Assembly: GCF_000026545.1 (NCBI RefSeq)
Contig: NC_011601.1
Strand: one strand, 5' to 3'
Source: Escherichia coli O127:H6 str. E2348/69
GTDB lineage: Bacteria; Pseudomonadota; Gammaproteobacteria; Enterobacterales; Enterobacteriaceae
Length of the DNA: 64,000 nucleotides
Shown: positions 10,025 to 57,065 of the stretch, one piece after another
Position numbering within the stretch: the first letter of the stretch is position 1
How the letters are laid out: the number at the start of each line of letters is the position of its first letter
The notes under the pieces: generated by a model
What the model saw: the letters and a program-made list of their open reading frames with translations, nothing else
Databases searched by the model: none
What the model was told of the DNA's origin: nothing
Position numbers and translations under genes: made by a program

Positions 10025-10251
10025 TGTTTGTACTCCCAAAGGTTCGCAACAATTTGTAAGCGTGTATTCTTAAAAAAGCTCACGTTCGTCACCAGCTAAA
10101 TCTGGTATGAATTTCAGCCTAAATTGTTACAAAGCATATTAAACAGCAGCTTAAGTATACAATTTATTCGGCGAAACATTATTGATTCTGTTGATATGAT
10201 CACGTTATACCCAATGTGCGCATTATCAAACAGACAAAGGGAATCAACGAG

Positions 10252-10824: not shown

Positions 10825-13146
10825 ATGATGAATGATTCGTTCTGCCGCATTATTGCGGGTGAAATTCAGGCGCGCCCGGAACAGGTTGACGCTGCCGTTC
10901 GCCTGCTTGACGAAGGGAATACCGTGCCGTTTATCGCACGTTATCGTAAGGAAATCACCGGCGGTCTGGATGACACGCAGCTGCGTAATCTGGAAACGCG
11001 TCTGAGCTATCTGCGCGAGCTGGAAGAGAGACGTCAGGCGATCCTCAAGTCCATTTCCGAGCAAGGCAAACTCACCGATGATCTGGCGAATGCCATCAAC
11101 GCCACCCTAAGCAAAACCGAACTCGAAGACCTCTACCTGCCCTACAAACCTAAACGCCGCACCCGTGGGCAAATCGCCATTGAAGCAGGGCTTGAGCCGT
11201 TGGCCGATCTGCTGTGGAGCGATCCGTCACACACGCCAGAAGTCGCCGCTGCACAATATATTGATGCCGATAAAGGCGTGGCAGATACCAAAGCCGCGCT
11301 GGACGGCGCGCGCTATATCCTGATGGAACGGTTTGCCGAAGATGCCGCGCTGCTGGCGAAAGTGCGTGATTATCTGTGGAAGAACGCGCATTTGGTTTCT
11401 ACGGTGGCGAGCGGTAAAGAAGAGGAAGGGGCGAAATTCCGCGACTATTTCGATCATCACGAACCGCTGTCCACGGTGCCTTCTCACCGCGCGCTGGCGA
11501 TGTTCCGTGGTCGTAACGAAGGCATACTTCAGCTTTCGCTGAATGCCGATCCGCAGTTCGAAGAACCGCCGAAAGAGAGCTATTGCGAGCAAATCATCAT
11601 GGATCACCTTGGCCTGCGCCTGAACAATGCCCCAGCGGATAGCTGGCGCAAAGGTGTGGTGAGCTGGACGTGGCGCATCAAGGTGTTGATGCATCTGGAA
11701 ACTGAACTGATGGGCACCGTGCGCGAACGCGCGGAAGATGAAGCAATCAACGTCTTTGCCCGTAACCTGCATGATCTGCTGATGGCGGCCCCTGCCGGGC
11801 TGCGTGCAACGATGGGCCTCGATCCGGGTCTGCGTACTGGGGTAAAAGTGGCGGTAGTCGATGCAACTGGCAAACTGGTGGCGACCGATACCATTTATCC
11901 GCATACCGGGCAGGCCGCAAAAGCAGCGATGACCGTTGCTGCGCTGTGTGAAAAGCATAATGTTGAACTGGTGGCGATCGGCAACGGTACAGCTTCTCGC
12001 GAAACCGAACGTTTCTATCTCGACGTGCAGAAGCAGTTCCCGAAAGTGACCGCGCAGAAAGTGATCGTCAGCGAAGCTGGCGCGTCGGTTTACTCGGCTT
12101 CCGAGCTGGCAGCACAGGAATTCCCGGATCTCGACGTTTCGCTGCGTGGCGCGGTGTCTATCGCCCGTCGTTTGCAGGATCCGCTGGCGGAGCTGGTGAA
12201 AATCGATCCGAAATCTATCGGCGTAGGTCAGTATCAGCATGACGTCAGCCAGACGCAGCTGGCACGCAAACTGGATGCAGTAGTAGAAGACTGCGTAAAC
12301 GCCGTTGGCGTCGATCTCAACACCGCTTCTGTTCCTCTGTTAACCCGCGTGGCGGGCCTGACGCGCATGATGGCGCAAAACATCGTAGCCTGGCGCGATG
12401 AGAACGGCCAGTTCCAGAACCGTCAGCAACTGTTAAAAGTGAGCCGTCTGGGGCCGAAAGCCTTCGAGCAGTGCGCGGGTTTCTTGCGCATTAACCACGG
12501 TGATAACCCGCTGGACGCTTCTACCGTTCACCCGGAAGCCTATCCGGTGGTGGAACGCATTCTGGCAGCAACACAGCAGGCACTGAAAGATCTGATGGGT
12601 AACAGCAGCAAACTGCGTAACCTGAAAGCATCTGGCTTTACTGATGAGAAATTCGGTGTGCCGACGGTAACCGACATCATCAAAGAGCTGGAAAAACCGG
12701 GTCGCGATCCGCGTCCGGAATTTAAAACCGCTCAGTTTGCCGATGGCGTCGAGACAATGAACGACCTGCAACCGGGTATGATCCTCGAAGGTGCGGTGAC
12801 CAACGTCACCAACTTTGGCGCGTTTGTCGATATTGGCGTGCATCAGGACGGCCTGGTTCACATCTCTTCATTGTCGAACAAGTTTGTGGAAGATCCGCAT
12901 ACCGTGGTGAAAGCGGGCGACATTGTGAAGGTGAAAGTGCTGGAAGTGGATCTTCAGCGTAAACGTATCGCCCTGACCATGCGTCTGGACGAGCAGCCTG
13001 GCGAAACCAACGCCCGTCGCGGCGGCGGTAATGAACGCCCGCAAAACAACCGCCCGGCAGCCAAAACGCGTGGGCGTGAAGCGCAGCCTGCCGGTAACAG
13101 CGCGATGATGGATGCGCTGGCGGCGGCAATGGGCAAAAAACGTTAA
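10825..13146 (+). CDS. yhgF: Tex-like transcription accessory protein (S1 RNA-binding domain protein YhgF)
   Basis: 773 aa; YqgF/RuvC-like and HhH regions, C-terminal S1 domain, basic tail. Confidence 0.9.
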
Positions 13147-13225
13147 ACGCCCGGACTGGCCCCTAAACCTGCGCGATTAGGCGTTCACGCCGCATCTGGC
13201 AACGAACGCCTTGCCTGACATAAAA

Positions 13226-13254
13226 GTGCCGGAGAATATCTCCGGTCTTTTTAT
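13226..13254 (+). terminator. Rho-independent terminator downstream of yhgF
   Basis: GCCGGAGA-ATAT-CTCCGGTC followed by TTTTTATT. Confidence 0.7.
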
Positions 13255-13454
13255 TCCACAACCAAACTCATAATAGATTCCGTTAATATTTATCACTTCA
13301 TTAACAACTGAAACCTTAATTAAACATTAACCAGCCCTAATAATTCGTCATGCGAATTATATTTTCGCTGCGATATAACCTTGAGCCATATCAACATTGA
13401 GTCAGATTATTATTCAAACCAACATTCACACACATTTTAAGTATTGCTGATAGA

Positions 13455-13475
13455 AACCATTCTCATTATCATTGT
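13455..13475 (+). promoter_or_regulatory. Fur box in the feoABC promoter region
   Basis: AACCATTCTCATTATCATTG approximates the Fur consensus GATAATGATAATCATTATC; lies in a long AT-rich leader upstream of feoA. Confidence 0.6.
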
Positions 13476-13583
13476 ACTGTTGATTATTTAATCTCTCCTT
13501 CGTTGGCAAATCATCTGGTCTCATGTCGCTGTCAAACGCCCCATGAGGTAGTTATCCAGTTAATGAGAAACAAGTAGGCACCT

Positions 13584-13811
13584 ATGCAATATACTCCAGA
13601 TACTGCGTGGAAAATTACTGGCTTTTCCCGTGAAATCAGCCCGGCATATCGCCAAAAACTGCTTTCTCTTGGCATGTTACCTGGCTCCTCTTTTAATGTG
13701 GTGCGCGTCGCTCCACTCGGCGACCCCATTCATATCGAAACCCGTCGTGTGAGCCTGGTATTACGCAAAAAAGATCTGGCCTTATTAGAAGTGGAAGCGG
13801 TTTCCTGTTAA
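13584..13811 (+). CDS. feoA: Ferrous iron transport protein A
   Basis: 75 aa, [28 protein letters not shown]3-like FeoA; immediately upstream of feoB. Confidence 0.93.
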
Positions 13812-56971: not shown

Positions 56972-57065
56972 AAAAAAAAGCCAGCACCCGGCTGGCTAAG
57001 TAATACTGGAAGCAATGTGAGCAATGTCGTGCTTTCAGGTTCTCCGCGAGGGTCTTCCTGATCGC
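56972..57065 (-). ncRNA. ryhB: RyhB iron-responsive small RNA
   Basis: Minus strand reads GCGATCAGGAAGACCCTCGCGGAGAACCTGAAAGCACGACATTGCTCACATTGCTTCCAGTATTACTTAGCCAGCCGGGTGCTGGCTTTTTTTTT, which I recognise as E. coli RyhB including its terminator hairpin; located between yhhX and yhhY as in K-12. Confidence 0.92.

Follow-up and report, generated by a model that had tools for sequence, protein, structure and literature searches.

The 437-bp spacer between yhgF and feoA (positions 13147-13583) in a 64,000-nucleotide stretch of the Escherichia coli O127:H6 str. E2348/69 chromosome (NC_011601.1), hereafter the window, is most probably the 3' end of yhgF followed by the known regulatory region of the ferrous-iron uptake operon feoABC, its promoter and a short leader. 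We put this reading, which describes an already known arrangement, at roughly 90%. The AT-richness of the spacer reflects dense AT-rich operators and not a long RNA leader. Published positions from E. coli K-12 were transferred to the window by alignment offset, and the spacer was compared among 76 Enterobacteriaceae yhgF-feoA loci using footprinting alignments of 21 and of 75 sequences. In both alignments the conserved blocks coincide with regulator sites, and the DNA between them is unconserved. The features are collected in Table 1.

The feoABC regulatory region

The list of open reading frames (ORFs) and the RefSeq annotation place the end of yhgF, annotated as encoding a Tex-family RNA-binding protein, at 13146 and the start of feoA at 13584, in the gene order yhgF, feoA, feoB, feoC. 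An initial annotation of the window, made from the sequence alone, had described a spacer of about 440 bp, much longer and more AT-rich than the other spacers, and had taken it for a long leader of feoA. The length agrees with our measurement, and the spacer ranks second among 44 in the window (median 78 bp) and is the longest between same-strand genes; the only longer one, the divergent malP-malT spacer, measures 621 bp and limits the comparison. The claim of AT-richness holds for the core at 13250-13500, whose GC content of 0.31 is among the lowest of 200-bp stretches in the window, level with rtcB-rtcR, compared with 0.52 for the window as a whole. It does not extend to the entire spacer, which is not unusual in overall composition since its GC content of 0.40 is close to the mean of 0.42 for window spacers of at least 100 bp, four of which are lower. 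The observation is real and somewhat overstated. Of 5426 complete E. coli genomes, 5425 contain the spacer, and its median copy number is one per genome.

Genome-wide 454 mapping in K-12 gives a feoA start at -105, with a -35 element 'GTATTGCTG' and a -10 element 'ATTATCAT' separated by a spacer of 17 (PMC2760140 supplement). The numbering of the feoABC site as -191 to -171 in a study of ArcA places +1 at 13478, independently of the 454 data and one nucleotide from the 454 position. A start 105-106 nt upstream of the feoA ATG means a leader of about 105 nt rather than about 440, so that some 330 of the 437 bp are untranscribed promoter DNA or yhgF 3' end, which contradicts the long-leader description. 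One sigma-70 promoter, TTGCTG-N17-TATCAT, would start feoABC transcription at 13478-13479. Its -10 element is invariant across genera in the alignments. A simple sigma-70 scan of the spacer found no promoter, because the -35 element of feoAp matches the consensus at only three of six positions, and feoA is absent from the lists in the Kim 2012 supplements.

The promoter is covered by a Fur operator. At 13452-13476, GATAATGATAATCATTATC is matched twice at 13/19 positions; the two matches overlap with a 6-bp offset and together form three GATAAT-like hexamers. Such a score is not rare, with 24 sites per 64 kb, and the significance of the box comes instead from conservation and published chromatin immunoprecipitation (ChIP). 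The core AACCATTCTCATTATCAT has zero to two mismatches in the 76 loci and is the best-conserved part of the spacer (column identity 0.82-0.97). In iron-replete K-12 cells a Fur peak from ChIP with exonuclease trimming (ChIP-exo) at v2 3538047-3538080 maps to 13446-13479 (PMC10164565 supplement). The Fur-like box recognized in the initial annotation at 13455-13475 lies inside the consensus matches and under this peak. Fur has been shown to repress feoA-lacZ anaerobically in K-12, on top of activation by FNR and ArcA. Since the hexamer array overlaps the promoter spacer, the -10 element and +1, Fe(II)-Fur bound there would block RNA polymerase when iron is plentiful, that is, repression would work by promoter occlusion.

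Upstream of the promoter, a motif scan of the kind proposed in the initial annotation located an FNR site matching nine of ten consensus positions. Its K-12 counterpart TTGAGCCACATCAA scores 14.6 bits and lies beneath an FNR ChIP-sequencing (ChIP-seq) peak (PMC3688515 supplement). The centre of the site is 90.5 bp upstream of 13478 or 91.5 bp upstream of 13479, away from the common class II position of -41.5. The best FNR-like site occupies a position 89.5-90.5 bp upstream of the equivalent of 13478 in 73 of the 76 loci, and 80.5 bp upstream in one, despite the fact that the DNA between FNR site and promoter is only 46-62% conserved. This fixed spacing argues for helix-face-dependent activation from a class I-type position. 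Class I activators of the FNR and CRP type are centred near -61.5, -71.5, -82.5 or -92.5, and the feo site resembles them in lying far upstream of the -35 element at a rigidly conserved distance; because the start is known only to within 1 nt, the centre can be given as -90.5 to -91.5. FNR bound at this site, about 91 bp upstream of the start, would relay the anaerobic signal at a family-wide fixed spacing, and class I activation at feoAp is the mode suggested by the comparison. According to the published view, Fur repression under iron-replete conditions masks activation by FNR. A class II arrangement, in which FNR would serve a start near 13429, was also considered and rejected: there is no -10-like hexamer at 13417-13422, and the mapped start lies elsewhere.

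A distal activator site occupies about -192 to -172. In K-12, ChIP-seq combined with a position weight matrix (PWM) identified the ArcA site TTGTTAATGAAATGATAAATA (17.6 bits, -191 to -171), and feoABC is activated by ArcA (PMC3798270 supplement). Purified OmpR shifts a feo fragment that carries the candidate motif TTATCAtttcaTTAACA at -294 to -278 from the ATG (PMC7315122). The sequence TGTTAATGAAGTGATA matches 10 of 11 positions of TGTTAAN5TGTTA (TGTTA-like repeats 11 bp apart) and is one of two such sites in the window; conservation of the ArcA/OmpR site is 0.71-0.79 among the 75 sequences. ArcA, and probably also OmpR, would bind at about -190, beside a second conserved AT-rich block. This block matches 12 of 15 positions of the ArcA box; four such sites occur in the window, two of them here.

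The two regions account for the AT-rich repeats that the initial annotation had listed as possible regulator sites or leader RNA structure. Its example repeats are genuine: 13282-13292 and 13321-13331 are inverted copies of 11 nt that are 91% complementary. One of them, TTAATATTTATCA, overlaps the ArcA ChIP site, and the other, TTAATTAAACATTAACC, corresponds to the conserved block, so they are plausibly regulator sites. The leader-structure half of the suggestion does not stand, since transcription starts 150-195 bp downstream of the repeats, which are left out of the leader. In addition, 13319-13334 in the conserved block and 13477-13492, which comprises the first 16 leader nucleotides, are 75% complementary inverted copies (ATTAAACATTAACCAG and CTGTTGATTATTTAAT), which might be bound by one protein that loops the DNA.

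The K-12 promoter feoAp, with its Fur, FNR, ArcA and OmpR sites and its predicted NagC site, is orthologous to the region described here, and every mapped site falls at corresponding coordinates. The comparison with the characterised feoA promoter that had been proposed in the initial annotation therefore places the K-12 start and the Fur, FNR and ArcA sites within this spacer. From the FNR site to feoA the two strains are identical except for five substitutions; single-base differences fall in the ArcA/OmpR site at 13296, in the FNR spacer at 13389 and at 13476-13477. K-12 carries 19 extra bp in the region of a repetitive extragenic palindromic (REP)-like element described below. Differences between the two strains cluster in that region and in the NagC-like segment. 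We infer that the E2348/69 feo promoter behaves like that of K-12.

Several points weigh against this assignment. The ChIP data, electrophoretic mobility shift assays (EMSA) and start-site data were all obtained in K-12 and not in E2348/69, and the K-12 sequence has other bases at -2 and -1 and one substitution each in the ArcA/OmpR site and the FNR spacer. A single 454 read and the numbering in a supplementary table are the basis for the start site. A centre at about -91 is unusual for FNR, whose activation of feoAp from this position is putative. Binding of OmpR is known from EMSA on a fragment and not from a footprint, and the NagC site is a prediction from an in-silico scan and database listings repeated in papers.

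Table 1. Features of the yhgF-feoA spacer, in window coordinates.
Feature	Coordinates	Strand	Basis and details
REP-like palindromic element, yhgF 3' untranslated region	13170..13211	+	partial naRNA4 match, inverted repeat
Intrinsic yhgF terminator	13222..13254	+	stem 13228-13246 then T-run, tail CTTTTTATTC; looks bidirectional
ArcA site (TTGTTAATGAAGTGATAAATA, minus strand), coinciding with candidate OmpR motif TTATCAnnnnnTTAACA (13290-13306)	13287..13307	-	ChIP-seq, EMSA
Conserved block GAAACCTTAATTAAACATTAA beside ArcA site	13310..13330	.	identity 0.63-0.79; response-regulator-like
NagC-like operator palindrome AATAATTCG-TCATG-CGAATTATA, predicted	13339..13361	.	matrix score; perfect 8-nt arms
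FNR site TTGAGCCATATCAA	13381..13394	.	9/10 to TTGATN4ATCAA; K-12 ChIP-seq
Degenerate RstA/OmpR-like box CCAACATTCACACACA	13419..13434	+	second candidate OmpR motif; direct repeat
Sigma-70 promoter feoAp	13444..13472	+	-35 TTGCTG 13444-13449, 17-bp spacer, -10 TATCAT 13467-13472
Fur operator	13446..13479	.	three GATAAT-like hexamers (minus strand TACAAT GATAAT GAGAAT); K-12 ChIP-exo peak
feoABC transcription start site	13478..13479	+	454 mapping gives 13479; ArcA-site numbering gives 13478
feoA 5' untranslated leader	13479..13583	+	conserved 5' segment 13478-13506, variable hairpin module, Shine-Dalgarno AAGTAGG 13572-13578
Candidate leader RNA hairpin	13519..13548	+	UCUCAUG 13519-13525 / CAUGAGG 13542-13548; inner GC pairs 13528-29/13538-39

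Accessory sites and the yhgF 3' end

A palindrome resembling a NagC operator is predicted between the ArcA and FNR sites. With a PWM built from ten published NagC sites (training sites 16.6-24.3 bits) it scores 19.3 bits, the best value in the window, and it is more perfect here than in K-12 (18.2 bits), where its counterpart ranked seventh genome-wide in a FITBAR scan for NagC (PMC3098098). The site scores 16-19 bits at -139 in four Escherichia species. In other genera the matching position (about -140) gives at most 11 bits, and the best score elsewhere in the spacer reaches 15.3. The palindrome would accordingly be an Escherichia-specific site, as predicted from sequence.

A second candidate OmpR motif, CCAACAttcgCACACA, corresponds to the degenerate RstA-type box of Table 1; the smaller fragment tested for it was not shifted by OmpR (PMC7315122). 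Salmonella, Citrobacter and Enterobacter retain an RstA-type box TACATTCCGTCACA immediately 5' of the -35 element; in all Escherichia this box is degenerate, AACATTCACACACA (comparison of 13421-13434 with loci L008, L009, L019 and L079 of the comparative set at -57 to -44). Accessory regulator sites thus look as if they turn over around a fixed Fur/FNR core.

At the other end of the spacer, yhgF is followed by a REP-like element and a terminator. The REP-derived Rfam model naRNA4 matches only partially, with its first stem-loop, at 22.2 bits against a gathering score of 59.5, and the arms of the inverted repeat lie at 13179-13186 and 13204-13211. The segment 13160-13260 has a folding energy of -35.4 kcal/mol (z score -4.9). 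This region is lineage-specific and not kept between genera: Salmonella arizonae has a fuller naRNA4 copy (46 bits), and other genera, Enterobacter included, have unrelated palindromes. The terminator that the initial annotation had assigned to yhgF is confirmed as a hairpin with a T-run tail. A terminator scan places it after the yhgF stop codon with a stem of eight pairs, five of them G-C; its energy is -14.6 kcal/mol (z -5.2), none of 200 shuffles was as good, and it was also found as an inverted repeat.

Three further observations concern Fur. The segment 13276-13295 also resembles a Fur site (11/14 to the 7-1-7 motif); because it shares sequence with the ArcA/OmpR site and the Fur ChIP-exo peak does not reach it, it was rejected as AT-rich resemblance. 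The Fur-box core (13460-13468, TTCTCATTA) and the leader just upstream of the Shine-Dalgarno sequence (13561-13569, TAATGAGAA) supply the arms of a perfect 9-nt inverted repeat. The leader arm is Escherichia-specific, with AGCGAGA at this place in other genera, and could be either an additional, weak Fur-like element or a chance resemblance. Finally, a K-12 Fur ChIP-exo peak labelled 'ompR intergenic' (v2 3534739-3534772) maps to about 10157-10190 of the window, in the ompR-greB spacer (10025-10251). This may link Fur to ompR/envZ, with OmpR in turn activating feoABC.

Two genomes show unusual spacers. In E. coli H52 the match is confined to the first 123 bp, pointing to an insertion or rearrangement there, and Enterobacter sp. 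RIT418 (L076:756-1500) has a 745-bp spacer of GC content 0.57 that looks like an insertion into the regulatory region.

Alternative readings of the spacer and the leader hairpin

Three other explanations for the whole spacer were weighed. One, which follows the initial annotation, is that most of the AT-rich DNA is a long transcribed leader whose repeats fold as a regulatory RNA such as a riboswitch, attenuator or thermometer. The spacer is indeed long, its length is conserved (256-553 bp in nearly all of the 76 loci) and it contains repeats. Yet those repeats lie 150-195 bp further upstream than the mapped start at -105/-106, fall on the ArcA ChIP site with its candidate OmpR motif and on the adjoining conserved block, and are preceded by the yhgF terminator. 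No Rfam family reached its gathering score within the spacer, and scanning downstream of +1 revealed no terminator-like hairpin followed by a U-run. We consider such a leader very improbable. The idea of foreign or mobile DNA, either an insertion remnant or an H-NS-silenced island, could draw on the GC content of the core relative to the window, on the lineage-specific repeats that accumulate after yhgF (REP in Escherichia and Salmonella, other palindromes in Enterobacter) and on the fairly low identity of the spacer within E. coli, with 2468 records at 90-95%. However, the yhgF-feoA synteny with a long AT-rich spacer is shared by 76 Enterobacteriaceae species, the most conserved blocks sit in the AT-rich core, the median is a single copy per genome, and variability is limited to the REP/terminator part and the NagC-like segment. 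A foreign origin of this kind is hardly credible.

A hidden gene would require either a small protein or an antisense small RNA related to STnc390 of Salmonella. ORFs of 7, 32 and 39 codons are present (an upstream ORF at 13523-13546 on the plus strand, and ORFs 13426-13524 and 13177-13296 on the minus strand), a weak STnc390 match covers 13214-13280 of the minus strand (23.5 bits, E 0.009), and the RefSeq locus tags skip a number between yhgF and feoA. The STnc390 alignment consists of the terminator hairpin only, its 23.5 bits compare with a gathering score of 50, and the model has no match in the Salmonella (arizonae, diarizonae), Citrobacter and Klebsiella loci. The start codon of the upstream ORF is missing in Salmonella and Pluralibacter, stop codons interrupt the minus-strand ORF in E. 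albertii, Salmonella, Citrobacter and Klebsiella, and none of the E. coli genome records listed has an annotated feature inside the spacer. Both candidates were rejected, as terminator-only resemblance and as unconserved ORFs, and a hidden gene seems most unlikely. The preferred reading remains a regulatory region with a promoter and a short leader.

A different proposal adds to this reading instead of replacing it. The hairpin at 13519-13548, flanked by CGTTGGC and CAGTTA, could be a functional RNA element that modulates feoA mRNA stability or translation. Leader lengths are 87-119 nt in most genera, and in the 75-sequence alignment the first 30 or so nucleotides (TGTTGATTATTTAATCTCTCCTTCGTTGGC) and the Shine-Dalgarno sequence are conserved and the middle is variable. 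Single-sequence folds place a hairpin in mid-leader in nearly every long-leader genus, despite unrelated sequences (Klebsiella, Kluyvera, Kosakonia). RNAalifold, applied to a sequence-based alignment of 19 leaders, predicts nine pairs, four with compensatory changes, and G-U intermediates are present. Paired cells amount to 93.4%, a value that none of 500 shuffles attains (84.9% in shuffles); controls with slid partners give 31-62%. In 10 of 11 clades the mean folding z score of the inter-anchor segments is below zero (t-test p = 0.0025), and the control region -82 to -37 has a mean of 0.08.

Other results point in the opposite direction. Taken alone, the E. coli hairpin is weak (-9.7 kcal/mol, z -1.4, with 15 of 200 shuffles as good), and the whole leader has a z score of +0.5. 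Salmonella has a mismatch in the stem and a positive z score, RNAalifold on all 43 leaders returns no consensus structure, and the compensatory changes represent only two or three independent events. The untranscribed control -146 to -101 has a mean z score of -0.86 and is negative in 9 of 11 clades; this control also tends towards palindromes, so the hairpin signal is not specific to RNA. The hairpin has no Rfam match, and no description of it was found in the literature searched. The group of Enterobacter, Lelliottia, Leclercia and Silvania lacks the whole module. In these genera and in Huaxiibacter the leaders measure 33-36 nt; about 70 nt containing the hairpin module are gone, and the first 20 or so nucleotides and the Shine-Dalgarno sequence are retained (L040, L042, L048, L056, L060, L063, L069, L072, L073, L076-L079 and L081; leaders at about 1466-1500). 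We regard the hairpin as a tentative addition. A functional RNA element in the leader is possible and unproven, with modest comparative support. It is somewhat more doubtful that the middle of the leader as a whole (13507-13566, about 70 nt) is a conserved stem-loop in which sequence turns over with pairing kept and which exerts post-transcriptional control of ferrous-iron uptake. If true, the stem-loop would act on mRNA stability, translation or factor binding, and the Enterobacter/Lelliottia/Leclercia/Silvania clade would have deleted this control.

Additional candidates for leader-based control were rejected. An outer helix of CGTTGGC with CAGTTA(GCG), seen in single-sequence folds, has an A-C mismatch in Kluyvera on hand inspection, and no structure emerges from the 43 leaders. 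The small RNA RyhB, Fur-regulated and encoded at 56972-57036 on the minus strand in the yhhX-yhhY spacer, is the only Rfam hit in the window that reaches its gathering score (83.1 bits). Its pairing with the feoA leader has an unremarkable RNAduplex energy, as good or better in 24 of 31 control 5' regions. For CsrA, published transcriptome effects on feoABC come without a crosslinking and immunoprecipitation (CLIP) peak tied to this leader. Klebsiella indica (L071:1266-1500) has a 235-nt leader with a structured segment of about 130 nt (fold -72 kcal/mol) that looks like an insertion.

Related systems and biological meaning

The feoABC region of Salmonella enterica shares the Fur/-10 core, the FNR site and its distance, an ArcA-type site and a similar leader length with E. 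coli. It differs in keeping the good RstA box TACATTCCGTCACA where Escherichia has AACATTCACACACA, and in lacking the NagC-like palindrome. Regulation of Salmonella feoABC by RstA is reported by way of citations in PMC5519574 and PMC7315122. In Yersinia pestis, too, feoA is preceded by a long regulatory region, which holds a proven Fur site as well as putative Fnr and ArcA motifs; its DNA is reported to have no significant similarity to that of E. coli (PMC5519574). In Y. pestis there are two promoters, Fur represses only under microaerobic conditions, and mutations in fnr, arcA and rstAB are without effect (PMC5519574). In contrast, E. coli has one mapped promoter, and FNR and ArcA activate it.

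Published sites fully account for the spacer, which therefore needs no further attention as an anomaly. What the comparison adds is the fixed FNR spacing in about 75 species, the apparent turnover of accessory sites, and a candidate leader hairpin module in most genera with one clade lacking it. Enteric bacteria take up ferrous iron anaerobically mainly through feoABC, which has a part in gut colonisation. Signals of iron (Fur), oxygen (FNR and ArcA) and envelope or osmotic state (OmpR) converge on its promoter.

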